A stretch of 63,938 nt of DNA, the filler included, from Folioceros fuciformis (taxonomy: Eukaryota): NCBI GenBank assembly GCA_049999805.1. It is 11 parts of 11 records of this genome, joined end to end, with 100 filler letters (N's around TTAATTAATTAA, not from the genome) between each part and the next. Parts side by side here need not be neighbours in the genome. Positions count along the whole stretch, not along the records: positions 27,670 to 49,538 come from JBNGIO010002025.1; 10 more parts are not named here. One strand, written 5' to 3'. Shown here piece by piece: positions 23,562 through 53,099 of this stretch (the first letter of the stretch is position 1; each line of letters starts with the position of its first letter). Below the pieces are notes generated by a model. The model was not told where the DNA came from. It saw only the letters and a list, made by a program, of their open reading frames with translations, and made no database searches. Made by a program: the position numbers and the translations under genes.

Positions 23562-23661
23562 NNNNNNNNNNNNNNNNNNNNNNNNNNNNNNNNNNNNNNN
23601 NNNNNTTAATTAATTAANNNNNNNNNNNNNNNNNNNNNNNNNNNNNNNNNNNNNNNNNNNN

Positions 23662-27480: not shown

Positions 27481-28070
27481 CGTTGTAGCTCTGGGATTCA
27501 ATCCCAAGGGAATGATTCGTGTTAAACTACATAGGTTAGCTTCTAAAGTCAATTAGCACCTAAACTCGANNNNNNNNNNNNNNNNNNNNNNNNNNNNNNN
27601 NNNNNNNNNNNNNTTAATTAATTAANNNNNNNNNNNNNNNNNNNNNNNNNNNNNNNNNNNNNNNNNNNNGTTAGGAACTAGCTTCGATCCTAGAGCCCGT
27701 TCTTGGTAAGAGCCCGTACTTGTTACGAGGTAGTTTTGGTCCTGGAGTCAGGTTTCTTGATACTTCGTAGAGGTAGCTTTAATTTTAGGCTCTCATTCCA
27801 CACTATTTTCATCGTACTCGTTAGGTACTGCTTAGACTCGCTGATTATAAAACAATTCGTATCTACATGACATGGAAGTAAATATGTATATCAACAAACG
27901 GCTGCTCTGGAAGAGAGGCAAACGCATTTGCCCAGGAGGGAAAAAAACGTGGGTGCAAAGCTGAAAGGTCAGGCAGCGAATTGCGTGCAACAGGTAGCGG
28001 ACAAGCGTGTGCTTTCCGAGGAAAGTGAAGTGAGTCCTTTCTCCAGGCAGTTGATGACTGGTATGTACAG

Positions 28071-29362
28071 TTAGCCGACAGTGGATTCCACTCCCGCATC
28101 TGGGAACTTCTCATGCGCTTTGGGTACATTCTCCTCATACGGAAGATCCCCAAGGTCGGCATTGTGCAGCAGGGGAGCTCTCTCTTCCTGGACGCCACCA
28201 GATTTGGTCTGCCCTACATCTGCGTTCTCATCAAAGCACACAGACTACAGTCAGGAATGGCCACTCGGTGCTCTTCACGGGAGCATTGTATTTCCGTGGC
28301 AACAGCTCACCGGTTGGGTGTTCGACAGGAAGGTCGGGTGCGGGTGCTGAGTCGTCTTCGCCAGAAACGCTCCTACCTGGCTGTCTTTCCACACTGAACG
28401 TCCTTGCATCACCGCGGAGCCCGTGGACTTGGGTTGCACTGAGCAGTCCCGCTCGCTCGTTCAGGTCGGCAGCAGCTTGCATCGACGCAGCGACTCCCCC
28501 GGGCACAATCTGGCCATAGCCGCCCCGAAGCTCGGCTTCCCGGATTTTGGCGGCGTCGTCCTGCGTGACTACCTTGTCCGCGTATAACTGCACGGTGGCG
28601 TCCTGGTTGGCATGGGCGGCACACAATGCCGCCTGTCAGAAGACGGCTTCCTGCCCATTTGGATCAGCAGAGAAAGGGGAAGGGAGTCCGAGGCTTACAA
28701 CGAGCACATCGCCGAGGGTGGCGGGCTCCTCCGTGTCCTCCCGCAGGTTGAGCTCCGCCGCGGACTGCGCCGTGGCGGCCAGCCCTCCATGCGGCACGGC
28801 GGGCAGCCCCGTGGCCCGGACCTCCGCGCTCTGGATGGCGCGCGCGTCCTGCAGCTGCACAGGCCGGTCTACTGCCCCGACTGCCGCAGCCTCCAGCGCC
28901 TGTTCGTCAAGCACGGATTGGATCCCTCCTCTTTCACGGCAAGGCAAGAGCAAGAATTGTGGGCGGTAATCCGGCACTCACCTCTCCGATGGTGATGGCC
29001 TCGGAGGCGGCGATGTCGGTCCGGGTGGGCAAGGGACATGCCGTCTGCACCACCGGCTGCCCAGCAAGGTACTCCGTCTCCAGCAAGGCCCCCGGCAGCA
29101 CCGTCTCCACCACCGTGACCCCGGTCTCCGCTACGGGCGAGTGCGCGTCCTTGGCCACCAACCCCAGCTGCACGTTCCGGGCGGCGGCCGCTTGCATCGC
29201 AGACGCGGCCCCGTGTTTCTGCGTCTTCCCCGTGGCCAACGCCTCAGCACTCTGCATCAGGGCTGCATCCTCCGGCGTCACTGCCTGCTCCGCGATGGCC
29301 CCTGGAGCGTCCACGAACACATCCCCGTAGGTGACGGGCCGCTGCGCCTGCTCCTGGCTCAT
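28071..29362 (-). CDS. Late embryogenesis abundant protein D-34 (SMP repeats); exons 29362-28982, 28899-28699, 28602-28311, 28219-28071
   Basis: MSQEQ..VTYGDVF, DAALMQSAE, ITIGEALEAAA, GGLAATAQSAA, TLGDVL..DA...ADK.VT..DA, PGGVAASMQAAA; GT-AG introns of 82, 96 and 91 nt. Confidence 0.92.
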
Positions 29363-29533
29363 CTTTGCCCCACTATCGACACCAACAAGACTCGGTGCTG
29401 CTGCTTCCTCCTGAATGCCTCCAACTGGTAGTCTGACAACTGCTCTCCGATCAAGGTCGATGGCGTCTCAAGCTGATGCTTCGGAGAGTGGAGAGGGGGC
29501 AGTATATGTAATTACGGTAGCCAGGAAGGACGG

Positions 29534-29572
29534 CCACACGCGGCGCACATCCAGAGAGCCTTCGGGACACGT
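29534..29572 (-). promoter_or_regulatory. ABRE (ACGTGTC at 29572-29566) plus CE3-like CCGCGTGT upstream of the LEA gene
   Basis: Canonical ABA-response motif ~200 nt upstream of a LEA start codon. Confidence 0.55.
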
Positions 29573-30392
29573 AGCAATGCGCAGGTGGCGTCCTGCTATT
29601 GTGGCTTGCAAGATCGCATTAACTGGCCCGGTTCCAGGATTTGATTGGGCCAAGTTAATGCGCCACCCGCCCAGGCCTCCTCGTCTGGTCGCAAGGTAGA
29701 CAACATATATGAACATATTCCAGTGAGATGGCACTGGCGATGGCGATGCACGGTGCGCAGTTGAGGATGTGAGGAGGCACTCGACTTTCTGGACGCAGTG
29801 AACGGAGATTGAATGTTTCTTATGATATTAGTACGTACATGTCAGTCGCCGGTTTACTGGTGGCCACCATGACTCATGTATGAGAAGCAACGTATTTATC
29901 CTCAGGTGATTCTGGGATCATATCCGAGGTGCTCGTCCCACCAATGTCATTTGCCATGTGGCCTGGTTGGGCATGTGAGTCGCCTCGAGGGTCGGAAAGA
30001 TCGACGGACCAACGTGCCTGCATTGATCAACGGGCTGGCACAGAGTAGTAGTACACAGGATGATCTTTTCAGAGCGCGGGACTTCGTACAGCGCACCATT
30101 TGACTTAGCCAATTCTGCAGTAGGGTTCGTTTCCTATCGGTTGCCGGATTGATGACCTGACGCAAGAAAAGCTACAACAGTCAATATCACTCAGAGTGAG
30201 AGTCTTATACGAATGATTGAACTGACAGGCGTAAGTAGTTGTTTACACCAAGTCTGTGTGTGTCTGTTCGCTGCAGTCACTCGACAGGAGGAGCATACAA
30301 AGGGCGCAGGAATCTGGGAGACGGGTGTTGAAGCAGCCTTGAATTTGTTGCTAAGATGGAGGGAAGCAGCGTGAGCAGGGCTGGTGGATGGG

Positions 30393-32209
30393 TCATTTCA
30401 CCTCTGGTCCGGGGTCGTTCACTATGCTGTTCACCACATGAAGAACCTTGTCCACATCCACTGTGAGCGTGGTGTTCTTCCCTCCGGGACTGTAGAAGAG
30501 GTGGTATCCGAAGTTGAGAACCCCGGCCAGGTTCTCGTAACAGCTGTTGGAGAAGTTGGTGGGGCGGACCTCTATCACAGACGAGCCGTAAGGCATGAAC
30601 ACCATGTTGGACAGTCCAGCGCCGTGGGGGGAGATGTATACCACGGCCTTGGAGAACAGAGCTTGGATATCCTTGAACATTTGCTTCCTCTTCATGTTGT
30701 CTTTGTAGTGGAAGAGCTTAACCCTGGCCACCCCATAGGTCTGGGTCAAGCTCTCCACGAGGGACACAGTCTCGTTCACTCTCCGGGTGGTGTCCCTGTA
30801 TCCCACCACTATCAGCCAGTCAGGCACACGCTCGAACACGATCCGGTTGTCGTTCTCCAGGTGCAGGTACTCCTGCCTGATCTTCTCCCATCCCACAGGG
30901 GAGCTCTGGCCGCAGGGCTGGCTGACTGCTGTGATCAAGGTGTTAGCGTACGCCAGATCTTGCTGCCCATCCATGTAGTGGACATTGAACTCGTCCAAAG
31001 ATTCCAGTCCCAGAACCTGCAAAACGTATCGGTAGTGGTCGTCGTTGCGGGACACCAAAACTGGAATCCCCGGCATGCTGCGGAGGATGGGCAGCAGCAC
31101 AGCCCACTTGGGCACCGACTCTACCAGCGCATGGTAGTAGTTGTAGAGCCCCATGGTGAGGCTGACAGCCACATCAAACCGTACAAGATTAGTGACTCCA
31201 CTGGTGAACAGTGGGTTGCTGAAGTGCTCCCCGCACCCGCCCTTGAGATACATGTTGTGAGCGTCGAAGATCTGCGCGTGGTAGTTGGTGTAGACGTTGG
31301 ACATGACCGCGACAGCCCCGAAGTACTCCCCATAAATGAGCAGGGTGCGAGCAACATGATCGCCCCCCAGCAAATGCTCCGGGATAGACCTCGGAAACGG
31401 CCCCTGCGAGTTGAGGCACACAGCCGCCAGCCCGTGCACCGTCTTCCCACATTGCCAGAAATCCGGGCACTCCAGTTTCCAGCCCCTCCCCGGTCGGATC
31501 TCCAGCGCAGTCGGCCCCGCTCCAGAGCACAAGTTAGGCAAATTGTGGAAGGCCCGGGTGTTGAGGTCGTAGAGGGCGTGGAAGGTGAGGTTGTTCGGCA
31601 GAGCCTCCAGTTCCTCCTTCACGTGGTACTTTCCTCGAAGGCTGCGCTGCGCAACGGGCCCAACTCTTGGACCTGCACCAAAGATTGTCATTAGACATGC
31701 TGGTCCCTCTATTACCATTGCGGTTGACACTGCTGCTGGCAATGCCCAACAACCGTGAGCTTCGCTCAAGAGAGTTCATCGCACTCACCTCGGCCCGCAT
31801 CAATGCCGACTGGTCTTTCGAAGCCACTCACAACGGTGTTGAGGAAATTGAGGCCGACGCTCCCACCTTCCACCGGCGCCTCTTCCCGACGGGCGACTCC
31901 GTCGCGGTGTCGCTCCGCTCGGAGCAGGTTCCCGTGGGGCCAGGCGAAGGAGAGCTCCTGGCTGTCGAGGAAGGCGGCCTTGGTCAGCCCCGCGTGGTAC
32001 AGGCCGTCAGGCCGCAGCTGCAGCCGGCAGAGCGCGCGGCGGTAGGGCGAGAAGAGGGAGTACGAGTTCGAGTCCTCGCTGTCCCCCTCCCACGTCCCAT
32101 CCCAGGTGCACGACAGCAGGTGCACGCAGAGGTGGGTGGTGGCCACGAAGAGCACCAGCAGGCAGAAGCGCAGGAACATCCTCCACCAAAGGCCCGGGCT
32201 TCTCGTCAT
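30393..32209 (-). CDS. Glycosyltransferase family 61 (DUF563)-type type II membrane protein; exons 32209-31789 and 31672-30393
   Basis: N-terminal signal anchor; NYYH motif and ISPHGAGLSNMVFM...VIEV signature; 116-nt phase-1 GT-AG intron joins the two ORFs. Confidence 0.85.
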
Positions 32210-33262
32210 GGCCTCTGATCCCCTCCCTCCTCAGCGCAGGTGCCAGCAGCTCCCGACATTGCGCAATGCAATGCCATGCGATGCAATGCAGGATGCAAGC
32301 CAGCTGGTAGGATGCAACCCTGAGCAGCAGCCCCTGCGTAGAAGCAGAAGAGGAAGTAGAAGTGCAGCCTCTCTGCTCACCCCGCTGAATCGGACAGCAC
32401 GGAGCATATGAGGCGGAAGGACAACGACCCACAAGCGCCGAGGCACCACCAACCTCCGTGCAGGCCGCTGGTACGGCAGATCGAGGGTGCTGCAGCAGCG
32501 GACAGCTTCGGCGGTTGATTACGTCTAGCAGCACCTGGAGTGGCGTAGCGTGCGCTGCCTCTAGACTGCTTCCTCTCTTCCGGGCTTACTGTCAAGGCGA
32601 GCCCAGAGGAGATGGGAAAGGTGGTCATGGAGGGGGCAGTTGGGCGACTCCCAATCGCGGGCTCAATAATCGGGGCGAGGGCAAGAGCGCGATACCCGCT
32701 GCTTCGACTCCATGCTGGCTGACTTGATCAGCAGGGCCCAAACGGGCGGGGGCGAGCCTGGCGAGAACGTGAAAGAGAACTGGAACCAAGGCAGAGGCTT
32801 AACAGTTTTCGGGACACTGGGCAGCCCGCACACACTTTGCACGAGTGACACGGGACAACGCTCCGGACAAGGACGACAAGCCAATTGTCCTCTCCCATAA
32901 GTTATGGCAATTGTCGGGACTCTGGGCTCTCGCAGTGCATGTTAGGGGCCCGCCTCTGGGATACGGACTCTGGGACCAGAACCAGCACATACTGCCGATG
33001 GGCCCTCTCTCACAGAGTCACAGGCTGCTCCGCCCCATTTATGCATCCGTCCTCCTACGCTCCCCACCCTCCCTTTCTCCAACAAAGCTCTCTGACTCTC
33101 CATCAATGCGGTTTCAACACCCCTCTTTTCAACATCCGTGTTTTTGCAGTGTTTTATGGACTACGGAGAGATGGATAAACCAGTCTACTGTACAGTCCTG
33201 CACTACAGCGGTGGCATGGAGCACTGTACAGCCTTTGGACGGACTAGGCAGTCCTTGGACTC

Positions 33263-33929
33263 TGTAAACACCTAGGCTCCACACCCTAACCAATTTCACC
33301 ATTACTCCTCCCACCTCACCTTCTTCTTGATGAACCACGTTGCTGTCGGATAATGCCTCTTCAAATCCCTTTGTCTCCAAGGCAAGGAGACAAAATAAGG
33401 AACTGGTACCTCTTCCAAACTCCCTCCAAAAGCAATCAGTACATGAATACTTGGGATATCTTCGGTGGCCATTACTCCTTCCCCTTCCCTTGATCTCTTG
33501 AAGACGATTTCAAAACCACACCATTAGTCCAACACGGGCCAGCGAATGATAAGTACATGCATTTTATGCTACCATGAAATTTAATCTCCTCTTTGGTACT
33601 TCTACCCTGTTAAAGGATATGAGCTCATTCTAGCTTTTGGAATGTTTAACTTGAGCCACTACAGATCGGACCCACTACATCATTCTCCAGATTAGGAAAA
33701 TCTGTACTTACCGTCAAAGCTCTTTACAGCATTGCCCATATCCCACGTTGGAAGATACTTGGTCCAACATCCACTGCAAAGCAATATAAGGTCTTGATAA
33801 AGTGAAGGTAAATAATAGAATTAAAAGAAGACCTCTAGAAAGATCCAACTCAGCCTTCTCGGCTCTTGAAAGAGAGATACCAACGAGATGCTATTAAATA
33901 CCAAAGAATATTACTAGCATCTTGTTACA
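33263..33929. mobile_element. Possible solo LTR
   Basis: AT-richer 667-bp block bounded by TGTAA...TTACA; no matching target-site duplication seen. Confidence 0.25.
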
Positions 33930-34144
33930 GGTATACATTAAACTATGTACACATGTAGGTGTGCATGCACCCTCGATTGTTTAAGGTTGTTGAGAGAGAT
34001 CAGGGTTTGAAACTAATTGCTTACCGGCGTAGGTTAGGAAGTATTCCTTTGTGCTTCGCCTCCGTCTTCGAATTTGGTTGTTGCTACTGGAAGTGTGTAT
34101 CAACAAGTCCAGCTACTCTACATGCATCACCTGCGCACCTGGTG

Positions 34145-35774
34145 ATGGGATCGAGTGCGAAAGGGAAAAAGGCGTCCCGAGGAGCTGCAGCCCGTTCCAA
34201 GAGGGAGTCCCAAGCCATCGGTGATCTCGTAGCTTGGGTTTCCGTACCACTCTCTTCGACTGCCGCTGATTCCAACCTCCTTGGCAAGGCTAGGCCTGGG
34301 CCTGCCTCGGCTCCGCTTTTCGATCTGCACACGCACAGCACGTTCAGCGATGGCAGACTGACGCCATCTGAGCTTGTTGCCAGAGCTCATGCAACTGGGG
34401 TCGGTACACGACAGTGCAATCTCCATGCTTCATATTTGTGGGGATGTTGGTGGTCTTGAGTGTTGTGGTTTGGCCTCACCGATGTTGGGTTGTTGCGCAG
34501 GTGCAGGTACTAGCTCTCACTGACCATGACACCATGGCAGGGGTGCCAGTTGCCATGGAAGCTGGTCTGAAGCTTGGCGTGCGGGTGATACCCGGTGTGG
34601 AGATCAGCGGGCTACACCAGGGAAGGTGAGCTGCTTTCTGGTTCAGGCAGGCGGGGAGTAGTGAGATCGTCATAGCCGGCTTCTGAGTTTCATTGGCGCT
34701 TGTTTCAGTGAGCCTGTGCACATTCTAGCTTATTATGGACCTTGTGGCCCTGCAAAGGTTACTGAACTCAATGCGGTGTTACATGGAATTCGGGAAGGAC
34801 GATTTCTTCGGGCGCAGTCCATGGTGCAAAAGCTTCGAGCATTAGGAAAGGAAATTGGATGGGAGCGTGTACTGGCTATTGCTGGGGAGGGAGTTGCACC
34901 GGGACGGGTGCATGTGGCTAGGGCACTGGTAGACGCAGGGCATGTTGCCACTGAGCAAGAGGCTTTTGTCACTTATCTCCATGATGGTGGTCCTGCATAC
35001 GCCGAGTAAGTAGGGGCTCTTCATGGCTTTATGCTGCAACACCAGATGCCACATTTTTACCCCTCTCCTGCTCTTTTTGCCTTCAGGGGTGCCGAGCCTC
35101 CTGCGAATGAGGTTGTTCGGCTCATTCGTTGCACCGGAGGGGTGGCAGTGCTAGCACATCCATGGTCCCTTAAGAACAGTTTTGCGGTTATTCGAAGCCT
35201 GAAGTCAGCGGGGCTTCATGGGATGGAAGTGTACAGAGGAAGTGGTAAGGCTCCTGCCGAGTCTTGTGCTGCCATCGGTCGTTTTTTCCGGGCTAATGTT
35301 CCTGTTGCCCTGCCCTGCTGACTGCCTCGTCCTTTTCCTGACTGAGGTCGCTCTGATGGCTTCGGAGCCTTGTGTGAAGCCTACGAGTTGTTCAAGTTGG
35401 GGGGTTCGGATTTTCACGGGAGAGGTGATCCCAATGAGACACAGCTAGGTGGTGTGTCTCTTCCTGCACTAGTACTCCAGAGGTTTCTCAAGACAGCAGA
35501 GCCTATTTGGAGAGCCGCATTGAAGGACATCTTACATGACTTTGCAGATGACAGTAAAGAAGCATCTGCAGTAGAGCTGGCCAAATCAGTATCATCATTT
35601 GCAGAGTTCGATGGAGTGAAAACAACAGCTTTAAGGAATGCTGCTGGGTCCAGATTGCGGGTGTCTCCCTGGTTGACAGGAAAGGAACTCACGTGGGTTC
35701 AGGAAGAAGCAGCTTTGCTTCAGCTCCTTGCAGATACTGGACATGAAAACCCCTCAGGTACACAGAACCAGTAG
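34145..35774 (+). CDS. PHP-domain phosphoesterase (TrpH/YciV-like), about 5 exons
   Basis: FDLHTHSTFSDG, ALTDHDT, IPGVEIS, VHILAY, PGRVHVARAL, VLAHPW, GGSDFHG; introns 34400-34500, 34626-34708, 35006-35086. Confidence 0.92.
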
Positions 35775-36018
35775 TAGGACCAACTTGGTCGTATGCACGA
35801 ATTTCGGGCGAACTTACATTTGAAGGCTTCTTTTGCTGGGTCTGCACTGTGAATGGTCGCCCCATTTGCGGTTGATCAGACTGTGATGTCCGATTGAACT
35901 TCTAATTTGCAATAGGCGCTCGAGAACCTCGAGGTCACGTTCCGCAAAATCTCCTATCCTTCCCTTAGTAGAAGGAACCCGCTACAGCCGGACCGAAGCT
36001 TTCACTTGTTTCATCCAA

Positions 36019-36126
36019 CCTGATCACTAGCTTGTGTGTTTGTTCCGTCCTGATCACTAGTGTGTGTATTTGTTCCATCCTGATCACAAGTGTGTTTATT
36101 TGTTCCATCCTGATCACTAGTGTGTT
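36019..36126. repeat. 30-bp minisatellite, ~3.6 copies
   Basis: tgatcac(t/a)ag at 36021, 36051, 36081, 36111 with similar intervening sequence. Confidence 0.9.
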
Positions 36127-36560
36127 GCTTTCCCAGTGTGTACAACGTCGGACAGCACTACTGCAGGCTTAAGCATCTATGTGAGACATAGAAATATAAA
36201 AGAATCTGACAACAGACTGCGGCTCTGCAAGTGGGGATAGAACCGACAGCTCAAGGTGGCTTCAAATAATACCTGGTCTGCATTCCGTAAGAAAATGAAG
36301 CATTTACAATTGCATTGCAGCTGCCACTGCAGATTCCTCTCACAGCCCTCTTCTTTCCGTTCAAATCGTCTGCTTGTGGCATTTGGCTCAGCATGTACCC
36401 TCAATGACAGACTTTGATCCACAGCGTCAGGCAATCCAGAACGCAGACGGGGACAAATGGAACCACATTTCCTAAGGAGTGCTAAAGTACTAGCCAGCTA
36501 CTGAACTCTGAAAATCACCCCGTCAGTCCCAAATTTGAGACATGGTGCATTCCAAAACAC

Positions 36561-36863
36561 CTACTTCCTCTTCTTGGGCACGGGAAACTTGTCTTCCTTG
36601 CATGCCTCCCCTCTTGCTGTCGACTTGACGTCTTCTGCCTCATCCGCAGGGGTGCCGTGGCGAATGAAGTAGCTCGCAAACTCCTCCATGCATTGTTCCT
36701 TCAGCTCCAACAAACCATCAGACAGCTGCCTCGGGCTTGACACGCTTTTTGAAAATGCTTCATCCATGCCTAGAGTGACAGTCACGCTAGCGACAGGACG
36801 ATCCATGGCCTCTCGATATGCTTCGCGCGAAGTCGCCTCCTTAACAACAAGAGTACGAAACAT
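36561..36863 (-). CDS. Small intronless protein (100 aa), GON7-like (KEOPS fifth subunit) candidate
   Basis: Two beta-like segments, amphipathic helix LSDGLLELKEQCMEEFASYF, acidic tail, terminal PKKRK; head-to-head with PAA. Family assignment from architecture only. Confidence 0.55.
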   Translation of the reverse strand: MFRTLVVKEATSREAYREAMDRPVASVTVTLGMDEAFSKSVSSPRQLSDGLLELKEQCMEEFASYFIRHGTPADEAEDVKSTARGEACKEDKFPVPKKRK

Positions 36864-37057
36864 CACAGGTCGAACGGGCTAACTTAAATTCTAACTGTTA
36901 GGGTTGAGGTACTTGTTACGGTAACGGGTGGGAGTTAGGACAAAAACTTGCGGGTTCTGGTTCGGCTAGAACACTTTTGCCACTGGGGTGCACGCTGCTG
37001 TTTGGCTTGGTCTGCTTCTTATTCCAGCTCCGCACTCACAGGTACCTAGCACACATC
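36864..37057. promoter_or_regulatory. Candidate bidirectional promoter with telo-box-like motif
   Basis: 194 bp between divergent ATGs; TTAGGGTT at 36898-36905; perfect TTAGGGTTT in PAA intron 1 (37259-37267). Confidence 0.5.
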
Positions 37058-38413
37058 ATGAGTCGTGGCACTGGAGCTGGGTATGATCGCCATATCACCG
37101 TCTTCTCCCCAGAAGGGCGGCTCTTCCAGGTGGAGTATGCCTTCAAAGCCGTGAAAGCAGCTGGTATCACGTCAATTGGAGTCCGTGGGGCGGACTCCGT
37201 TTGTGTTGTCACGCAGAAGAAAGTTCCGGTATGTAATTGCAGACTCCACTGAGACCCATTAGGGTTTGACGTTCAGCTGCACGATAGTTTGCCTCAGATG
37301 ATGGTTTTGGTTACTTTTAGGACAAACTCTTGGATCAAACTAGCGTCACTCACCTTTTCTCAATCACCAAAACCATAGGCCTGTTGGCCACTGGAATGCA
37401 AGGTCAGATTCTGTAACTTCTTTTGAAATTGATCAACACTTGCGTCCATTTTCTGCGAAGGATATCCTGACTGTTTGCATTGCCTGGCAGCGGATTCCTG
37501 TTCCTTGGTGCAACATGCACGAAATGAGGCCGCGGAATTTCGTTTTAAGATGGGCTACGAAATACCTGTCAACTATCTTGCCAGCACGTGCGAACGCTCT
37601 TTTCTCTCTGTCTTGTTTTCAATTGTTTGAAGTTAGCAAGGAAACTGCCATGGATTCTTGATCATGTGGAAAACACGCAACAGGCTGGCAGACAAGTCAC
37701 AAGTGTACACTCAGCATGCCTACATGAGGCCTTTGGGAGTGGGTATGAATTCAGGGATTTTTCTGAAGTTCTTGGAATTGCCATAGTTTTCCACTTTTCT
37801 GCCTTTGAGGGGTGCTATTCATTTGCTTCGTCGTGTTTATGGCAGCTGCTATGGTAATCGGCATCGATGATGAACTGGGTCCTCAGCTTTTTAAGTGTGA
37901 TCCTGCTGGGTATTTTGTTGGCTACAAGGTTAGATATTGCCGCCATCTTGCTGGATGAGCAAGTGACAGTGACTCTCATACAGGACTGATGCAGGGAAGG
38001 TGACACCTTTTTTAGGCAACAAGCGCCGGTCTTAAGGAGCAAGAAGCTGTCAATTTTTTGGAGAAGAAAATGAAATCCAATCCGCAGCTGACTTACGAGG
38101 AAACTGTCCAGGTTTGTTGTGAATTGCGGCCTTGCAGTATCAGCGACCTCATGTTGACACCCTGCGTCTGGTTTGCAGACGGCGATTTCTGCATTGCAGT
38201 CAATCCTTTTGGAGGATTTCAAGCCTACCGAAATTGAGGTGAGAAAAATAACGCCATCTGCGTTTGCATTTCCGGGAAGGTGGATCAGGACAAAGCCTGA
38301 CTCTGAAGGGTCCTTTACAGGTCGGTGTCGTTAAGAAGGATCATCCAGCTTTCCGAGTTTTGACCACTGAGGAGATTGACGAGCATTTGACGGCGATTAG
38401 TGAAAGAGACTGA
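37058..38413 (+). CDS. PAA1: 20S proteasome subunit alpha type-6, multi-exon
   Basis: [83 protein letters not shown]. Confidence 0.97.
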
Positions 38414-38695
38414 GCATTTTATACTGCATTTCTTCCTTCGCAATTGTCAATCCATCTGAGGATTCTCTCCTTCTTCCGGGCTCTGTATCTAGTACCTCGA
38501 AGCCTTAGCAAAGGCATGTCGTCGAAGTTTATTGTCCAGAGACACAACTAGCAGAGAGTGCGCATGCTTGGTAGATCTAGACACCACCAATCTAAGGTGG
38601 AATAGCCATCCTGGCAGGTCCAGTTCATTTACATACACAAATAATATCTTCTACTAGAACTACACGCTAACAACGGGAAATGGGAAACCCTTTCC

Positions 38696-40943
38696 CTAAG
38701 CGCGGTCTCGGGCTACTCCAACCTCGTACAGATACTCCACAAATTCATCAATTAAATATGGCCAAGCTCCTTCTGCGTCATAATTCGATAGAGAAGGATC
38801 TATAGTCTGCAGCAGAGAAGGAGACAAGTCACATTCATGCACCTAGGCATGCTTTAGCACATGGGCAAGAGCAGGCACGGACCAACCCAGATGAAAAGGG
38901 GCTTACCCTAGAGAATTCCAGAAGCTGCGACCACGTATCCTTCGAGATGGCTTTGTTGTGCTTGGCCTGGAAAGATTACAATAACATATCCACTCTCAAC
39001 GTCACCATCCTCTAGGACTTAAAACTTGGGAAGACACCATCTCCATATCACTTACTTGCAAGAACTGACACCAATTTTCTACTAAGGGCCACGCTCGTTC
39101 TGCAAACAGCAAGCGCCACATGCCAACAGCTGTGTCGAGAGCCAAAGATTTTTGACCCTACAAGATACAGACCACTGGTGGCATCAGCAGCTTCAACCCA
39201 GATACCATCATAAGGACGCCTTTAAGTACAATGTTCCTAAAAAGTGTGAGACCGACCCACCTTTTCCTTGGCCCACCCGAAAGCGAAGTTGTAGATGTCC
39301 CGAAACTTATCTGAAAATACAAGGAGACAGGTGTGAAAATGCACCAATTTACAAGTTCGTTCATAGCAAAGCATATTCCAGCTCATACAGCAGGCCTACT
39401 GTTTTAATTTTTGGGAACTGAAGGAGATCAAACTTGTGAGAGATGGTTTCACAAGATGAGCACTACGGCAGCAGAGGTGAGGACCGTACGTTCATCTTTC
39501 AGCTCTTGCCTTAGCGAGGGGAGCAGATACTTGAGTTTGTCAAGAGAGTCTACGCTGCATAAATAGGAGATCCGATGTTAGGTCGTTGTGATAGATGAAA
39601 TTGAAACCAATTTGTGCATCAGATAAAAGGACCAGCATCTCCTAGGAGAAAGATAATACCCCAAAGAGTGGAGCCCTGCAGTGAACTCCAGCTTTGAGAA
39701 CTCACACATTGTAGCTGCTTTCATATGCCATGAAATGACCAGCTGCAAACAGTTAAATAAGATGTAGCTTAACAATCAGCAACTTTACCACACAGCATAG
39801 TGCTGGAACATGACATACTAGTAGTAGGAACCTGATTATGTGCTTACCATTACAACATCGCCAGGATCTACCTGCACAGAACCGACATGCCAAACACCTC
39901 CGTCAGAGAAGCCTACGGTTGGACCAGAAGGAATCTCACACTTCTCAGAAAAGTTTCGTGCAATTTTACCTGCAAATCATCGCAGAACAACGATACCCCG
40001 TCTACTAAGATCATGTCCGAGTAAGGATCTGCAAAAACACACTGAAGATGAATGGCTGGGTGAAAAAACTAACAGAGAACGGACAATGCTATCTCTGATG
40101 TGGACTTGGTTGGGAAAAATGGATGTCGGAGCTCAAACAGTCTAAATTCTGTGCCTTTATATCTGTTATAAAGTTCTTCAACATGCCGAGGATCCGTTGG
40201 CGGTCTTGATGGGGGCTGGGTGTAGAAGTACTCAAAGGCTCCTTCCAAATTCCAGTCACTTGACTTCAGGGCCGCTAACGCAGCCTTCTCACTGCAACAG
40301 CATGAACGAATACGCTGTGGTCGTTCAAATCATCCAGCCACCGGATCAATCTTCGCTGTGGCAGCAAAACTTCTCATACCTCGCTCCCGCTGCAATTGAC
40401 ATGAATTTCTCAACCTTCTCACGATGTCCCCTCCCTAGCTTGTTCTACAATAGCAGCAGTATGACCAGGCGTTAGCACCGAGAAGAGCCCCTACTAAACT
40501 CATCGTATACGCAATTCCCATACTAGATTCCTACATCCTTAGGAATGGACAGGACAGGAAAGGGAATTTGGGATGGGCATCCTTAGGGTAGCCAGATAAG
40601 GGTCTCAACGAATGCTACAGGCAACTTGTGAACTCTACCCCCATCCAGTGCAAAGCTGCGTTGGCTGCGTATAAATAACCTGTTCACCTTACTTGTGAAC
40701 TCAGGTCCAACAATTGTGCTCACAGGGACGTGCAACCACATACAAAACCTGCTGCTCACAGAGGCCAAGAGTACTAACTCTTGTCCTAGCTTAGTATCCC
40801 TAGGGTTTAGGGTTGAATAAGGCTAGCGGGCATTTGACCCGACAATTTCATCGATTCAGAAGTTCTGTGATGGCTCGGATTGCACTGGTAAGCACCAGCG
40901 CAGATGTGCGGCACTAAAGTAAATAGCGGTGCCGACTCACCAT
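38696..40943 (-). CDS. DCN1: DCN1-like protein (defective in cullin neddylation 1), multi-exon with ATG-only first coding exon
   Basis: [81 protein letters not shown]|gtgagt at 40943-40935. Confidence 0.95.
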
Positions 40944-42126
40944 CATTTCAACAGCCACAATTGGCACAAACCACGCGCCCTCCTTGTCTCCAGAAACCTT
41001 CGCATAAAGGGCCCAGCTTATGGAAACTGTCGCAGATGGGCTGACTTGTGGACGCCGCGCAGCATAAATGAACCAAGAGTCCCTGCAGCAGTCGCAAGCA
41101 GAACCATTGCAGAGCCGACTCCATCACCCTGCGGAAGGTTGGACAACATTTCGTGCAACGAGTGCTGCATCTAGACAAGACCACATACCGGAGTGAGTAA
41201 TCTGCGGCCACGAGGGCGTCACGCTTCCCGAGCGCACTGAGAGCCCCAAGAAGACGAGCCCACCCGACCTCGTTGTCGACCACGATCCAGCCAGCTTCAC
41301 AGAAACCCCAGCCAGCTTTAGGCGACTAAGAGCTATGCACTTCGAAATGCCAAGGTTCAAGTGGTGGTGTTTTTCGTGCTGTTCGTAGTTTCATGACACT
41401 TGTGGACCCTTGCTCGTCTGTGCCTCCCAAGCCATGCCCTTTTTGTGGTCCTACATGGGGTTACTTTTCCACACGGCTTTAGCCGGTGTGCCGGGCTGCT
41501 TTGGTGTGTCAGCTTGGAACATCCTGCTGCTACGTTCCATGAGTGGCGGAGCAAAAGCGCTATATGCGCGCTGCAGATCTGCTTGGATATCAGTTACCCT
41601 TGTTTGTGGCCCACAGCATGCTCAGCACAGGAATGTCTGACTATGTATGAGACGATGCATTCATTGCGATGCATCTAGGTTCTTCCTGTCTGCTGTGTGC
41701 CAGCATGATCCGCTCCCGCAACAATGGATGTAGATACGAGTGTGTGTACGTGATTTGGGAGCTAGACTTGTGCACCTTCTCTAACTGCGCCCACCTACTA
41801 ATGGATCGAATTCAACAGAGATTAATACATTTAAATAATTTACTTAAAATCCATATTTTGAGTCTGTCTGAAAGATCATCTTTTTATGTGCCAATGTGAA
41901 AAAGAACCTGGTATGGACTGACCTCAGTTAGCGATTGTGTGTCAATATCAACAACAACTACTTGATGATATTGATATAATACAATATAACAGACTCTTTT
42001 GAGTACTGATTTTTAAAAAAAATTAAAGATATAAATTCATTTACAATAAAGTAATATTACCTTCTCTATTAAGTACTAAAATTTTGATAAATCATAGAAA
42101 AATAAATTACTTTGATTAGATCAATA

Positions 42127-43836
42127 TTAAAAATAATTCCACCTAAGAAACTCATGTGTGGGATCAACATGGTTGGTGAGCAAACTTCGAATTCTTGCCA
42201 TATTAAGCTCATTATCAGTGGTGATTCGAATTTGAGCACAAAAGGTGTGTGTGTTTGTTCCATGTGGTGGTGGGTTATTGGGATCAATAGCTTGTAGATC
42301 AAAATCACCTTGGTTTTCCATGATGATGTCTAGCATCTCGTTAATAAGAAAAGGATCAAAAATGTTACCTATCACATGGATTGTAGACGAAACAAGCTCT
42401 GAAGGTGAGGAAATATTTGTTTTGTCACTATCCACTTTTGCCAATGTTAATGCTGCAACAGCTTGCTGCTGAATAAGGTGATCAAAAAGAGGATTAAGCC
42501 GTCCTCTTGAAACAACACATGCATTTTGTATCAAAAGTGGCATTGTTTGTAGAGTCAAATTACATGTCATTGCTTCAAGTAATGGTGCAATAGCATCGCT
42601 GAAGTGTTCAGTTGCTTCGCGAGGAAATTCTGTCGGGAGCACATCCACGGCTAGAACTATAATTCCATCGCCTTCCATATTGCCGTGATAAGAAGTCGTG
42701 AGGGGATTATATCGGAAAAAAGGTTTATCTATACTGGTTTGTACATAAACACATTCAATGGAGCCATTGAGATCACAAGAAATGTCCGCAACACCCAACA
42801 AAAGTATTCGAGAATCAAAGTCGGGGTCGCTCTCTTTGATTAGGAATAGCTTTTGTAGTTGTTCATTTGTTAGTAGACGAGGGAATCTAGGCTCCCAATA
42901 CATACAGTTGATGATAAAGGAGGTGTAAGGGGCAACATTAGTATGAAAAACAGAGTGATATTCTTCTGGATTAGCATAATAATGTGCTTTGTCAAAGTCC
43001 TTGCGATTAGGATTGTTATGTTCAACCATGTGTGAAGCATCTATCAAACATCCAAAGACCTTGAACCTATTGCTTTGTTCTGCATTAAGGGTGTTCTTGA
43101 CCAAATTAGGAAGCTCTTTGGCATCCACGAAAGAATGTGGCAAAAGCTTAAAAATCTCCATAGCACCTTGTCCTACATTTCCACACGCCGTAAACACAAA
43201 GACTAGAGGACAAATAGCAGAAGGCAACCCAGTATGTTTAATCTCTTCTCCTAGAGCTAGTACAGCCTCGCTAGCCTTACTCAAAGAAGGGTACATGTGA
43301 GCAAAGCCTAATCCCAAAAAAGGGGTTGAAAAGCCTAAGTTCAGGAACCTCTCCCCTATCCCTCTTAGAAAGTCCAACATCCCCGCCCTACCTGCAAATT
43401 CTCCAAACGCAACTACTCGCTTGCCCTCTTTTGTGGCCATAAGCTCATAGTCGAATAATGTAACATCCTTTTCCAACACTTCACCTAGCAGTCCCATGTT
43501 ATGAGGTTGTCCTTTGTGTGTGTGTGAAAAGAATGCATAAGAACGTTGTGGTAAAATAGTACCAAGTTTTGGGCTCTTCACTCCTAGAATCAGACCGCAC
43601 TGTGACATGTCTTCACTTACCTCACATCCTGCTTCCTCATAACTTAAGTTTTGGTGTATGCGTTTTGTACATGGTTGGATTATGATTTTTTGAATTCCTT
43701 GGCTTGTAGGTTCTTGTTTTCTTCTCCTTAAGAGCTCCAAGCAATGAAATGGAGTGAGTGGAGCCCTTCTCTCCCATTTATTTTCTTCTTTCAAAATCCC
43801 CACCACTCCATTTCCATACATCTTCACTTCTTTCAA
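42127..43836 (-). CDS. LKR: Intronless monofunctional lysine-ketoglutarate reductase (LKR domain plus plant linker domain, no SDH), 569 aa
   Basis: GNGVVGIL..NKWERRAPLTP, FFSHTHK, DYEL, FAGRAGM, STPFL, INCMYWEPRFPRLLT, DISCDLNGSIE, AVDVLPTEF, GNIFDPFLINEMLDII; one uninterrupted ORF. Confidence 0.93.
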   Translation of the reverse strand: MKEVKMYGNGVVGILKEENKWERRAPLTPFHCLELLRRRKQEPTSQGIQKIIIQPCTKRIHQNLSYEEAGCEVSEDMSQCGLILGVKSPKLGTILPQRSYAFFSHTHKGQPHNMGLLGEVLEKDVTLFDYELMATKEGKRVVAFGEFAGRAGMLDFLRGIGERFLNLGFSTPFLGLGFAHMYPSLSKASEAVLALGEEIKHTGLPSAICPLVFVFTACGNVGQGAMEIFKLLPHSFVDAKELPNLVKNTLNAEQSNRFKVFGCLIDASHMVEHNNPNRKDFDKAHYYANPEEYHSVFHTNVAPYTSFIINCMYWEPRFPRLLTNEQLQKLFLIKESDPDFDSRILLLGVADISCDLNGSIECVYVQTSIDKPFFRYNPLTTSYHGNMEGDGIIVLAVDVLPTEFPREATEHFSDAIAPLLEAMTCNLTLQTMPLLIQNACVVSRGRLNPLFDHLIQQQAVAALTLAKVDSDKTNISSPSELVSSTIHVIGNIFDPFLINEMLDIIMENQGDFDLQAIDPNNPPPHGTNTHTFCAQIRITTDNELNMARIRSLLTNHVDPTHEFLRWNYF

Positions 43837-44857
43837 ACTCTCTTGTTAATAAACATACATAAACTAAGGATAAGATACCTCTATTTGGAAACCAAGATCA
43901 CCAAAGAAATGTTGTTTAGATCTCACACTACAACATGTTTATACTTGCTAGGTCTGATTAGAGTTTATAAAACATTGTTTAACATTTTTTTTATCGGTTG
44001 ATTTTTATCATAGTTTATACTTGTTAAGTAAATTTTAATCACTATCACCACAAGTTCACATATTTTGATTCAGAGTAGATGATATTAATGATATGTTACA
44101 AGAACTGCATTGCATGAAGAAGCTAAGCTAATGCATGATGCTATTTTATGATGTGAATACAAAATATAGTATTTTAGAACCTAGTGTTATATTTTATAAT
44201 TAGGGTTTTCTTGGTATGAAATTTTGAGCTTTCTCTCATTGTTTATTATTATTATTATTATATTCCATTTCAAACTTGAGTGACATGCCCACTTCCACCT
44301 TTAAACTTGAGAGATATATATAATTGATTTGCATTTATTTTGACAGGTAAGTATGATCAAAATTAGAGTGTATAATTGTTTTGAGATATACATATGCCAT
44401 GATTTTTTAAAATTCTTTGTTTTTTATTAGGTTATTGGATTGTAGGTTGTAGTCAATATAATATCTTCATAAGAATAAAAATAATTCTTTTGTGTGTCAA
44501 GGCTTTTTTTATATCAAACCAAGTACACCCAGACAAACAAACAAACATGTTCTATTGTGAGACCTAAATGCAGCTGTGCTGATGCTATAATGCCATGAAT
44601 TATACATAAAATTTAGAGAGCAAATATAAAAGTTAGGCTTTTTTGAGAAAAAAAAACACAACTTTTATTATCTATTTTTATAAATTAGGTTTATAAACCA
44701 GAAGATAAACGTGTTTCAACTAACTATCTTGTTATGCATGTGCGAAGCGTGTAGCTAGTAGCTAGCTCTTCGACGGGGACAAAGGTGTAACGATGTGATC
44801 GATGGGATGCGCGATGAGGATGAAAACGGATTGAAATTGTAGCGTCCTCGGAGGGCG

Positions 44858-46552
44858 ATGGCTCTATCAGCACAAAAGTATGATCCGAGCAAGGCCAAGG
44901 CGCCTCTGGAAGCCACAGTGGAGGGTGCACCTTCCTCGTCCGACCCTTACTTCAAGGGGAATTTCACAGTTGCACTTGGCCGGCAGGAGCCGCTGGAAGT
45001 GAAGGGAACGAGCTCCCGAGCCCTGGGAGCGCTGAAACAGGGGCCCAAGAAAGAGCAGGGGCACACCCAAGTGAAGCTGTCGGATCACCACTCCATCTGC
45101 ATCTCAGCGAGGGGGGTGGAGGTGGCGGTCGGCTCGGCAGATTCCGCTGTGTACATCGTGAATGTGGAGACGGGCAAGTTCGTGAGGACGATGGGGAGCA
45201 AGGAGTTCGGGCATACGGAGTGGGTCACATGCCTGGAGTACATGGAGAACGGTCGCATCTTCAGTGGAGGCATGGACAGCAAGCTGTGCCTGTGGGAGAA
45301 GAACGTCCCGAGGTGCAGCTACATGGTGGGCCACAACTCGGCCATCTCGGGCTGCCAGGCCATGGCGGCCAACGATGTGGGGGTGAGCTCCAGCTACGAC
45401 GGCACGTTGAAGGTGTGGGATCTGTCCAAGACCTTCAACGAGTACAAGCGCGGGGTCCCGTGCTTGGGCACGCTCAAGGGGCATCACGGGCCGGTCACGA
45501 AGTTCGTTCTTGGCGTCCAGGAGAGCAGCATCGTGAGCGGATCCAAGACCGGGGAAATCATCCTGTGGGACGGCGCGGAGGGGAGGCCGCTTATGCACTG
45601 CGTGGATGCGCACAACGGGGCTGTCACAGCGATCGTGAGCATGGTGGGCGGTAACAAGGCGGACAGGGAGAGTGCGGGAACCGGGGAAATGTTTCTCACG
45701 GGAGGCCAGGATGGCATGCTTCAGGTTTGGGACTTCCGCGTGAGCCAAGGACCTGTCTTCTCTGTCAAAGCCCACAGGTTCCCTTCCCTACCCAGTTTGC
45801 AGTGTCTTTCACTCCATCCCTCCCCAGCGTTGAAATTGGTCTCTGGGGAAAGAGAAATTTTGCGTATACGCATCACTTGCTGTAGCTGGCTTCGCTCCAC
45901 GTCCACAAATTTCCTGCCTGGGAAACCACGTCTACGCATCAATTGTCGCAGCACCATGACGTCACGGTCGCGTCCTCAGCCTGCCTGCTGATCCCGCACT
46001 TACCCTTGGACCTGATCCTGCTAAATCTTGTGGGCCTTGTTGCTCCAAAGAGTGCCTCCAATGCTGTGTGGCAACTGTACAGGACATTCCAAGGATGTCC
46101 AGTCGCGTTTGTGGGCGTTTCGGTCACTGCAGGTAAGGCTCATGTGGTGACGGCAGGGGGAGATAAGGTGTTGAAGGTTTTGGATCCCCGAGCGTCGTTT
46201 CAGACTGTCCACACCATGCCTGATCACACCAGCAATATCACGGCCCTTCAGGTCTACGGTAACGCCTCCACCTTTCCTTCCAGATGCCAGGTCCCAACCA
46301 ACTTTAAATACTTATTCGGCCATAGGTGCTGGTTGTTTATGCTGACTTGATACAATGTGATGCACGGCAGGTGTACTGCTGTGGAGCGGGGCAGCGGATG
46401 GGAAGGTGCTGCTGCACGAAGTGACCAGTGGCAACTGCTTGTATTGCCTCCCTCCCGTTGCGAAGGGCTCCGTGAGATGCCTCACTCTGGCAGGAGACAG
46501 CAAGCTTGCTGTGGCAGGGGATGACGGAACTGTCGTCATCTACCCCCACTAG
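44858..46552 (+). CDS. WD40-repeat protein; exons approx. 44858-45777, 46083-46258, 46371-46552
   Basis: GH..WD repeats: GHTEWVTCL..SGGMDSKLCLW, SSSYDGTLKVWD, TGGQDGMLQVWD, TAGGDKVLKVLD, SGAADGKVLLH. Confidence 0.88.
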
Positions 46553-48493
46553 TAACGTATCACTCGCTGCACCTGAAACGGCATCACTTGAATCGGACAC
46601 ACATGGTTTGCGTTTCCCACTGGAATCTGCGTTGTCGACACAAATGCTACACAGAAACAGTACCACAGCTTTGTAAGGGCCTCTCAGGCCTCTGTGCCTC
46701 AGGTTCAGTCACCACCCACCACACAGAATCACACCTCACAACGCGGAACCGCTCACAAAGTGAATTCAACCCCCCTGTTTCCACAATCACAAGTCTGAAC
46801 GAATGAAAAGATGATCAGTGGGACCGGTTTCATTGTCAGCAGCTTGGGATTGGGCATGCACTGGGAGGTGATGAAGTCTGCGCACCCTCCTCATCAATCA
46901 TGCAATGTCAGAGGTTGATGAACAGACATTGTCACGCAGGCTGGGGTCACTTTCCTGCGAACGACTGATGACTGCCTTCTCTCCTGCATGAGGGCGCCCT
47001 GTATGAGGGAGCCGGTTTGGGGTAGTTGGCCGACCGGCAGCGTCCAGTGGGTGTCATGAGAGCGGAGAAGTGCTCTCGTACAGCATTTCAATCAGCCAAA
47101 TTGGTTACTAATACCTGGGAGCCTTATCCGATTCCAACTGCCTCTTCCTCCCAGTCTGACTGATTGAGGGGCCTCGCTCACATGACAAGCTGCACTCAAC
47201 CCTCTCAACAATGACAGTCGATGTCAGTCTGCAGTATGCTTTCATTTCCTCCAAGACCTTGCGTGCAGCACCCACTGACCGTGCTGTTGCCATTGCATTG
47301 CTCACGTATCGTGTGGTGAACGTGATTTTGAAGGGAGGAATTTCTGCCACTTGTGCTGCAGTAAACGTCACGCAGCTCTGATATTTCCAGCTTTCTGACC
47401 TCAGATAAGATGATGGAACAAGTTGAAATTACTTTTCCTCACGACTTGACCTGTCAAAATGTATTATACATAGCTGCAGAGCCGTCATTCAACTGCCTGG
47501 CATTCACGAGGGCCTGTGACGAGGATCTCATCAGATCAGCGAGAGCGCGAGCCCGAGCTGCAGCCCATCTGCCAATCCGAATAAGACAACGTCGCCGTCG
47601 CATGCCCTTCTGTCAGTTGTGTTCAAACCATTCCCCAGCAACTTCTTTCAAACGACCTGTGGGACAGCTCTCTGCAACTGCAACTGCAGCTACAACTGCA
47701 ACTACAACTGCTACTGGCACTGCTCTGCGCTTCAAGGGCTGACAGCAAGACTTGGTAAGCCACTGGGTTGACACGCCAAATGTGGGCAGGGAAGCTCCTC
47801 GAGTGTTCGCTTCCACAATTGTGGCATCTCCTCAAGTGGTTCCCTTCACATTGTGATCAGCTCCTCAAGTGTCTCGTTGCACATCTGGGCCCATGCCCAT
47901 GCCCATGCCCTTGTCAAGCTCGTAATCATACTCGGAGATTGTCAGCTGTATCATATCACACCCCCTCCGTATGCTTTTGTACCGGTACCCCCAGCATGTA
48001 TCACATCTCTCGCTTTCCCTCAGCAACTTGTATTGTACCCACGTAGTAACTACGTGTGTAGCTGTCATGGCTGTCAGGCTGTGGTAGCTCTCCAGGTCCA
48101 CCGCTGAGGAAAACCAATTTACCCCGCATCCGCTTGATGCTGAAAGACGGAAATGGGAATGGTAGCTTGGTTGGCTTCATAGCAATGCAGATCCGAAATA
48201 AGATCAGATGCAAAGTTCTAAACAACCGGTGGTCGGGTGCGAATCGAGTCCCGTTGGGTCGCTCCTTCCTTGACTAGCTCTGCTCCGACAAGAAAGTTTC
48301 AACTTCCACATGAATGGCATCACGTTCAAGGTGAGACCACCATGCACCATGGAGCTTTGCATCACAGACCGCCCAGCCATGAGCATGAGAATGAGCATGA
48401 GCATGAGCATACGCCACGCCAGTAGGGATACATAAACCCAGAATCGTGATTCCCTTGGCGGAAAGTATGAAACACAAGCCCTCAAAACTTTAG

Positions 48494-48534
48494 GGCACAG
48501 GCACCGGCACCGGCACCGGCACCGGCACCGGCAC

Positions 48535-48573
<39 letters not shown>
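48494..48573. repeat. (GGCACM)n hexamer microsatellite, ~13 copies
   Basis: Direct reading. Confidence 0.95.
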
Positions 48574-48574
<1 letters not shown>

Positions 48575-49638
48575 CACGAGCAAGACATCCAGAATCCACG
48601 GTCACTGTCACCATGCGAGACGGCCTTGTCCCTGCACTTCCGTGAGTGAATCGGCAGCGGGAAAACTTTCGTTTCGGTTGCAACTTGCACAGCGTACAAT
48701 CAACCCCTGATTCCGTGAGCGTTGCGGGCGAACAGTAACGGTTGGGCTACCGGCTGCAACTGCTGGATATGTGTGAAGGCTGTTGATTCTTTAGGCGTGG
48801 TGGGGGGAATGAGGGACCACATTCCACAGGCTACAGTGGTCCTGGAAATCCACATCCACAACGACCTTGGCCATTACTTTTGCAACCGATTTAACCGACC
48901 GTGCGTCCGAGCTCATCGCATGGAGGAATCTTAGCAGCGAGTTACAAGGCCATAATAGCCGGAAGCGACTGTTCAGGTCATGCATGAGGCAGAAGCGCCC
49001 AGCCCAAGCTGATACAGATATTGGCTGATACATACTGTAGCTATCTATTGCAGCCTTGGATGGAAAAGGGGGGGGTGGGGGAACTAATGGTGAGTTGTGC
49101 TGGAGAAGCATGGGCAATCCGCGTACTCTTTTCAAATGTGGCAAATAGTCTAGATATGCTGCTGGAGCTGGAGTCGGTACACAGTAGAAGGAAGAATCTT
49201 GCTCGTGTCCCGAGGACACGTAGCTGAGTATATCTGCACCTACAGTGGCTTTCAATACCCCTTTTTATGGGAAAGAAAAAGGTTGTGCGATGGGCTGGGC
49301 GTGGAACAGTGGAAAAACCCATGCCGACACCACGAGCACGCCTGCATCAGGAATTGGATTTGCGGTGGACGGAAAAGTAAGTTTGTCGTCGCAGATGCCA
49401 CCTCCGCATATAGGCAGCGAATAATAGGGGACGGAGGCTGGGCCTGGGCCTAGAGGACGGGGAAAAAGGTGGGTTGTGCCGGCTGGACTTGCCTTGGCTG
49501 TTCTCGTCTTGGGGTCTGAGGTGGGTGTGAGATGGGCTNNNNNNNNNNNNNNNNNNNNNNNNNNNNNNNNNNNNNNNNNNNNTTAATTAATTAANNNNNN
49601 NNNNNNNNNNNNNNNNNNNNNNNNNNNNNNNNNNNNNN

Positions 49639-52933: not shown

Positions 52934-53033
52934 NNNNNNNNNNNNNNNNNNNNNNNNNNNNNNNNNNNNNNNNNNNNTTAATTAATTAANNNNNNNNNNN
53001 NNNNNNNNNNNNNNNNNNNNNNNNNNNNNNNNN

Positions 53034-53099
53034 CCAATATGCAGGGAGTTTCACTTTCTTCTCCTTCTTTGCCTTTTTCTTTGGATCGGCGAGTGGCAT
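53034..53099 (-). CDS. Possible 5' end of a gene running into the gap (MPLADPKKKAKKEKKVKLPAYW)
   Basis: AAAATG context, open to contig end, Lys-rich; only 22 codons visible. Confidence 0.35.

Follow-up and report, generated by a model that had tools for sequence, protein, structure and literature searches.

A stretch of 63,938 nt from the Folioceros fuciformis genome (assembly GCA_049999805.1; this whole stretch is called the window below) was found to contain an intronless gene, on the minus strand at 42127..43821, that encodes a plant-type lysine-ketoglutarate reductase (LKR, or LOR) followed by the interdomain module Saccharop_dh_N and ends before saccharopine dehydrogenase (SDH). Plant lysine catabolism is usually described as the work of one bifunctional, many-exon gene, LKR/SDH, in whose product LKR is held in check by the SDH half and the interdomain. 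We hold, with a little more confidence than doubt, that this is a genuine nuclear gene, maintained by selection, for a monofunctional LKR with a Saccharop_dh_N module and without SDH, that the loss of SDH and of the introns is old, and that the product is a predicted cytosolic lysine/2-oxoglutarate reductase.

Gene model and predicted protein

The coding sequence is a single exon that runs from an ATG at 43821 to a TAA at 42127-42129 (564 codons plus the stop), and in tblastn the full-length LKR/SDH proteins matched it once and collinearly. The initial annotation had described an open reading frame (ORF) of 569 codons; the open frame stands, but it lies on the minus strand, and that length counts from an in-frame TTG at 43836, within a stop-to-stop frame that spans 42127-43845. 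The ATG aligns with residue 1 of canonical plant LKR/SDH (MxGNGVVGIL), so the N-terminus is neither truncated nor extended and carries no added presequence. The other two minus-strand frames are interrupted by 34 and 49 stops across the ORF, and none of 2000 shuffles gave an open run above 174 codons, against the 564 observed, indicating that the frame is not due to chance.

Several comparisons identify the catalytic domain of the encoded protein (hereafter WIN), a domain of the AlaDH/PNT superfamily, which comprises residues 1 to about 455 (42457..43821, minus strand). Pfam AlaDh_PNT_N (PF05222) matched residues 8-145 (E 7e-16; 59.1 bits against a cut-off of 30.4), and the LOR domain of the human enzyme (PDB 8DDA, 8E8U and 8E8T) is collinear with residues 6-439 (E 1e-87). 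An AlphaFold model of the protein had a mean pLDDT of 89.5 and a pTM of 0.80, and superposed on human LOR (8E8U and 8DDA) with TM scores of 0.87-0.90, normalised to the target. The C-terminal SDH domain (PF03435/PF16653) had no Pfam match in the ORF, the stop of which precedes the point where SDH would start, and tblastn with three full-length LKR/SDH queries matched the ORF once, without interruption, and revealed no SDH exon in any part of the window; for sequence linked to the gene, this negative reaches 14.4 kb in the downstream direction and 5.7 kb upstream, the extent of the contig piece. Pfam, the human LOR match and tblastn thus agree with the initial annotation that LKR motifs and the interdomain linker are present, that the frame stops directly after the linker, and that SDH is missing.

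Lys82, within the GVK motif (codon 43576..43578, minus strand), aligns with the catalytic Lys77 of yeast Lys1, and His100, within FFSH (codon 43522..43524, minus strand), aligns with its catalytic His96; the two yeast residues form an acid-base pair, as the title of a paper cited in PMC9490328 (Kumar et al., 2012) indicates. His100 is at least 90% conserved among 60 aligned proteins, and the alignment shows that the ERR motif and Arg135 are also retained. GVKSPK (residues 80-85) and HKGQPHN (residues 102-108), which the initial annotation had listed as shifted motifs, are both present as described, but the catalytic Lys and His are kept. Its third unusual motif, the dinucleotide-binding loop FTACGNV (residues 210-216; 43174..43194, minus strand), departs from the usual LKR form FTGxGNV at Ala212. 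The alanine is rare among LKR/SDH proteins: of 39 other rows with a residue in this column, 37 have Gly, including the closest relative described below (P0002), and Ser in one further row (P0242), while two eudicot LKR-only rows deviate further along the loop. However, the active yeast Lys1 also has Ala at the aligned position (GALGRCG; HMMER alignment), so Ala212 need not be a sign of inactivation. Taken as a canonical LKR, the protein would be a cytosolic, NADPH-dependent enzyme that condenses lysine and 2-oxoglutarate to saccharopine, with Lys82 and His100 as its acid-base pair.

It would probably also be an oligomer, like the human domain. In the accounts given in PMC9490328, isolated human LOR is active only when its C-terminal helix is included, and within the tetramer that helix extends to the active site of the neighbouring subunit. 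The model of WIN has a helix at residues 448-465 in the corresponding place, a correspondence drawn by position only, and this helix may likewise contribute to the active site of a neighbouring subunit.

The retained interdomain module occupies residues 477-562 (42136..42393, minus strand). Pfam Saccharop_dh_N (PF04455, “LOR/SDH bifunctional enzyme conserved region”) matched residues 479-549 just above threshold (24.8 bits against a cut-off of 23.5), and the region was modelled as a beta-alpha-beta-beta-alpha-beta fold (pLDDT 78.9 when modelled as a separate domain). In Foldseek searches the best structure was 3MGJ, the Saccharop_dh_N domain of MJ1480 (TM 0.67-0.69), followed by the middle domain of the cyanobacterial AgrE/ArgZ. 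The tail DPTHEFLRW forms the last predicted strand of the module and the stop lies two residues beyond it; from this point the chain of canonical proteins continues through a variable spacer to the SDH Rossmann fold. The last 105 aligned columns, which correspond to the module, are 42% identical between WIN and P0002, compared with 62% in the core, and the module has remained open and alignable.

That a module of this kind was retained without SDH suggests, from comparison of the proteins, that it serves LKR itself. A review (PMC7253579) relates that plant LKR split from SDH is active, keeps its activation by Ca2+, and is inhibited by SDH-containing fractions, from which it would follow that a free LKR escapes the restraint imposed by SDH. 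We therefore envisage that in WIN the LKR activity would be released from the restraint that the fused SDH domain imposes in canonical plant enzymes, and that its saccharopine would either pass to an SDH encoded elsewhere or accumulate. A more far-reaching version, which we consider unlikely, is that an LKR with only the Saccharop_dh_N module is the lineage's own and possibly sole lysine reductase, or that saccharopine, or a carboxyalkyl-amino acid akin to it, is formed as an end product or signal and not channelled onward; in that event, a linker retained without SDH would show the module to work as a partner of LKR in its own right.

Selective constraint

An exhaustive search of 1.84 billion representatives returned 2661 matches to WIN at E <= 1e-3, among which a 563-aa protein, P0002, scored 747 bits and the next match 562 bits. 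A word-indexed search likewise yielded P0002 as a close relative, the sole higher-scoring row being P0001 from Brassica napus, which we rejected as the closest relative because its gene model consists of two LKR-only copies fused head to tail. WIN and P0002 are 59-60% identical and share their start, the position of the stop, a near-equal length and the tail DPTHEFL.W.

As a yardstick of conservation we used 30 canonical streptophyte rows, leaving aside five outgroup rows, three eudicot LKR-only rows and a duplicate Closterium row with gaps. Among the 117 columns invariant in these rows, WIN and P0002 each keep 101 residues, and both keep the residue in 94. Differences between the two proteins were scarce where canonical enzymes are invariant (15 of 117 columns, 13%), intermediate where they are at least 80% conserved (46 of 152, 30%) and common at variable columns (172 of 288, 60%); the contrast between invariant columns and all others (218 of 440, 50%) was significant by Fisher's test (p 7e-14). 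The terminal branches leading to the two proteins are of similar length (0.67 for WIN and 0.71 for P0002). Given the low rate of difference at invariant columns and the equal end branches, the pattern since the two diverged is, as judged from the alignment, one of purifying selection on both copies and not of decay. The proposal of the initial annotation that the frame has been kept open despite divergence is borne out by this constraint together with the non-random open frame.

Phylogeny and origin

In a tree of 41 rows, WIN and P0002 formed a clade with 100/100 support and a stem of 1.12. Within streptophyte LKR/SDH the clade shares a polytomy with the lineages of Closterium, mosses (stem 1.07), liverworts, Selaginella, ferns plus Diphasiastrum, and seed plants, and it falls outside the crown groups of mosses, liverworts, ferns and seed plants, each of which had a bootstrap of 100; the labels “gymnosperm-like” and “fern” for unnamed rows derive only from their position beside named rows. 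A quick tree of 76 rows put WIN beside seed-plant rows (SH-aLRT 90), in a row set that held no other land plants. Approximately unbiased (AU) tests rejected neither a position beside seed plants (p 0.42) nor one beside angiosperms (p 0.18). Identity of WIN to LKR/SDH proteins of liverworts, mosses, lycophytes, ferns, gymnosperm-like plants and angiosperms is flat, at 48-53%.

One alternative is gene fission, by which the ORF would be the only LKR of its plant lineage, having replaced the bifunctional gene, with a separate SDH gene elsewhere in the genome. The stem of the clade is comparable to that of the mosses, it emerges from the same polytomy as the major land-plant lineages, and among the named rows there is no canonical LKR/SDH assignable to the host lineage. 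However, only two members were found in 1.84 billion representatives and 5.8 billion clusters, whereas a lineage-wide housekeeping gene would be expected more often, and the composition of the ORF differs from that of the linked genes; we regard fission as improbable.

Canonical loci recovered as genomic sequence from metagenomes are broken at about residues 86-89, 115, 158-159, 215-216, 245-254, 278, 303-304, 370 and 404-408, one of them (L052) falling into up to 10 segments over residues 3-452. The Folioceros ORF is unbroken at all of these recurring canonical intron positions, at least nine in number, in agreement with the absence of introns noted in the initial annotation. That annotation had set the intronless ORF against intron-rich neighbours, which is correct for the adjacent DCN1-like gene, where an RNA contig reveals at least 7 introns, but does not hold as a general statement.

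We propose that the gene descends from a bifunctional streptophyte LKR/SDH through one old event that would have removed the SDH part and all introns, and since introns and the 3' half were lost together, retroposition of an mRNA would be the simplest explanation. The stop is common to WIN and P0002, which argues that the event is old, and it would predate the divergence of the two. The retrocopy origin suggested in the initial annotation therefore fits in one respect, since every intron is missing, as in a copy derived from cDNA, and lacks support in another, as described in the next section.

Points against a maintained LKR and alternative explanations

A number of observations weigh against a conserved LKR of retroposed origin. 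The usual hallmarks of a retrocopy are absent: the 3' flank holds no poly(A) remnant, and we found neither a target-site duplication nor flanking direct repeats. After an event of this age such losses are expected, and they do not exclude retroposition. In the protein, 16 of the 117 invariant residues are altered in WIN, including D58N and K184S, the nucleotide loop has the Gly-to-Ala change at 212, and eight derived residues at invariant columns are common to WIN and P0002 (Q221M, G408S, L411I, Y448H, H486N, A496M, G515N and V533I). In its composition, the ORF has a GC content at third codon positions (GC3) of 0.34 and an observed/expected CpG ratio of 0.44, compared with a GC3 of 0.81 in the linked WD40 gene and 0.74 in a linked GT61-like ORF.

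The eight shared derived residues could, to go by the aligned proteins, mean a changed function. In that case the gene would encode a neofunctionalised enzyme or regulator with an LKR fold, acting on another substrate or with another cofactor, or having a non-catalytic role by way of Saccharop_dh_N. Q221M adjoins the nucleotide loop, Y448H falls within a helix that matches, by position, the human C-terminal helix described as reaching the neighbouring active site (PMC9490328), and the C-terminal module has been kept under selection with no SDH to link. WIN nonetheless retains the catalytic Lys and His, the conserved Arg positions and the great majority of the invariant residues (101 of 117), and we rate a new function, for example with another amino acid or 2-oxoacid, as somewhat less probable than fission. 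The opine-like conjugate put forward in the initial annotation is speculative, the comparisons counting neither for nor against a different substrate.

The low GC3 and CpG values could reflect silencing or a foreign origin, and both have been considered. Silencing would accord with a relic, a formerly conserved copy that is now unexpressed or being lost in this genome. The loop alanine is private to this copy, and its CpG ratio and low GC3 resemble those of the transposon ORFs in the window; copia ORFs on other contig pieces have a GC3 of 0.39-0.50. However, the frame is open over all 564 codons, the end branch is no longer than that of P0002, each protein having 16 changes at invariant columns, and yeast Lys1 functions with Ala at the aligned loop position. 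We consider a silent relic very unlikely, the least probable of the explanations discussed here.

A foreign origin would imply a gene that was transferred horizontally or captured by an element from an AT-rich donor, either a plant or a mobile element or virus carrying plant cDNA, and that came to lie between two host genes. The ORF does occupy the gap between two divergently transcribed genes, its GC3 falls below the 0.55-0.81 of four host ORFs, and its flanks, with GC of 0.245 and 0.28, account for two of the four N-free patches in the window whose GC is under 0.33. The amino-acid make-up of WIN is the most AT-leaning of the 41 rows, with P0002 less so, and the AU tests would allow a position beside seed plants or angiosperms. 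Against this, no donor clade is apparent, as the pair stands outside mosses, liverworts, ferns and seed plants with full bootstrap for each and has a flat 48-53% identity to all land-plant lineages; 80 pattern matches in viral contigs yielded no confirmed relative; no terminal repeats, LTRs or target-site duplications flank the ORF, and neither flank recurs in the rest of the window. Host GC3 was taken from four ORFs, too few to define the native range. A captured gene thus seems about as doubtful as a new function, and we retain the reading of an old, maintained LKR gene as the one that best accounts for these data.

Comparison with known LKR genes and enzymes

Compared with the bifunctional plant LKR/SDH (alpha-aminoadipic semialdehyde synthase, AASS; EC 1.5.1.8 and 1.5.1.9), WIN has the same LKR domain and interdomain module, collinear from residue 1, but it lacks the SDH half, has its own conserved tail at the end of the module and sits on a long stem; it is encoded in one exon, where canonical genes have at least 10 over the same stretch. 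Metagenome contigs provided 65 loci with related sequences, all of the canonical type or more distant, and none had the tail of this subfamily or the GAM loop signature.

Separately encoded LKR is not new in plants. The initial annotation had taken monofunctional LKR to be mainly an alternative transcript of the LKR/SDH locus, a view that is outdated given the separate LKR-only gene described for poplar in PMC3017810 and many eudicot annotations. At least a dozen named rows in our searches are eudicot LKR-only proteins of 404-526 aa with PF05222 only (annotated “AASS-like”, about 450 aa). They resemble WIN in being separately encoded and without SDH, but they end before Saccharop_dh_N and their nucleotide loops deviate in other ways. 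LKR-only rows from Citrus, Mercurialis and Arabidopsis lyrata fall within eudicots (99/97 and 100/100), whereas WIN and P0002 are outside seed plants in the best tree, which gives no common descent of WIN with them; the AU test leaves WIN beside angiosperms as a whole (p 0.18). Judging by the best tree, the eudicot LKR-only genes are a separate invention, and LKR-only genes would then have had more than one origin in plants. Those of Citrus and Mercurialis (among P0041, P0052 and P0047) form a 100/100 clade of their own, apart from the bifunctional proteins of the same species, which suggests a paralogue that is old in rosids.

Transcripts of the LKR/SDH locus that encode LKR alone are reported for cotton, Arabidopsis and switchgrass in PMC3017810. 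Their products, like WIN, are LKR without SDH, but as that paper presents them they arise by alternative polyadenylation and end in an intron after the LKR domain, whereas WIN is the product of a separate gene and extends through the interdomain module. Among enzymes of known structure, human LOR (8E8U, 8E8T, 8DDA) shares the fold at about 37% identity and yeast Lys1 (2Q99, 3UGK) shares the aligned catalytic Lys and His and an alanine at the position of Ala212 at about 21% identity; both lack the Saccharop_dh_N module.

A narrow literature search found no published description of an intronless gene for LKR plus interdomain. Separate LKR-only plant genes and the enzyme class are already known; what appears from these comparisons to be new is a second, independent and rare LKR-only clade that is intronless, has Saccharop_dh_N and a conserved tail of its own, and has been constrained since an old split. 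A natural, separate LKR with a selected interdomain module offers a ready-made test of what the module does for LKR alone, and also of the fate of saccharopine when the two reactions are no longer coupled. In practical terms the gene carries modest weight, as the enzyme class is well known, LKR-only genes are already annotated, and function and expression are here predicted only.

Genomic context

The window consists of 11 contig pieces joined by ten N44-TTAATTAATTAA-N44 spacers (a six-frame stop linker) at 1075-1174, 6161-6260, 17268-17367, 19361-19460, 23562-23661, 27570-27669, 49539-49638, 52934-53033, 60357-60456 and 62310-62409, so gene order across spacers is meaningless and dips in GC at the spacers are artificial. 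The piece that carries the LKR gene, between the spacers at 27570-27669 and 49539-49638, is 27670..49538, and it is the sole stretch physically linked to the gene. Besides LKR it holds a GT61-like ORF, a proteasome alpha gene (an exon of which matched PDB 7QVE, a plant proteasome, best), the DCN1-like gene and the WD40 gene. Going by this exon and by a PPR protein on another piece (below), the host is probably a non-seed land plant.

Logan DNA contigs from two runs (X1 and X2) join the LKR ORF to both neighbours with zero differences (39500-42308, 41530-42247 and 43586-44934); since the assembly may have been built from these runs, they are not independent support. An RNA-like run from another study with the same species label (X4) contains spliced transcripts of both neighbours at 99% identity or more, which ties the contig piece to that organism. 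Its contigs cover 39500-41807 (spliced) and 44780-46866 but not 42010-44770, and the blank over the LKR gene is no evidence about expression.

The DCN1-like gene (UBA_4 and Cullin_binding domains) lies at 39500-41807 on the minus strand and has at least 7 introns (GT..AG, 88-496 nt); the 5' end of its RNA contig is 320 nt downstream of the LKR stop. The WD40-repeat gene, at 44780-46866 on the plus strand, is divergent to the LKR ORF. Its open frame ends at 45991 and the RNA contig extends further, with an intron at 46258-46369; either this is an intron of the 3' UTR, or an unspliced intron masks the true C-terminus.

The flank 5' of the LKR ORF (43822..44779, GC 0.28) reaches to the start of the WD40 gene, and the 3' flank (41808..42126, GC 0.245) to the 5' end of the DCN1-like RNA contig at 41807; no poly(A) signal of the AATAAA/ATTAAA type was present in the 3' flank. 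TATA-like words occur 377 and 501 nt upstream of the ORF and are not informative. Also upstream, an inverted repeat of 26 nt (43915-43940 and 44543-44568; 88% complementary) encloses about 650 nt of AT-rich DNA and could represent the ends of a small non-autonomous element.

Several of the other pieces contain copia-type retrotransposon ORFs (gag, integrase and RVT_2) at 7298-8005, 10700-11542, 19549-23421 and 24478-25149, with one frame (20908-23421) open over 837 aa. An open frame of 792 aa without a Pfam match lies at 3056-5434 on the plus strand, within a region of strong GC skew (0.28-0.34 at 2-6 kb). The piece at 53034-60356 encodes a single-exon PPR protein of 868 aa (54216-56819, minus strand), the best named relatives of which are from Diphasiastrum (43-47%), Adiantum, Ginkgo and Sphagnum, all at 47% identity or less.

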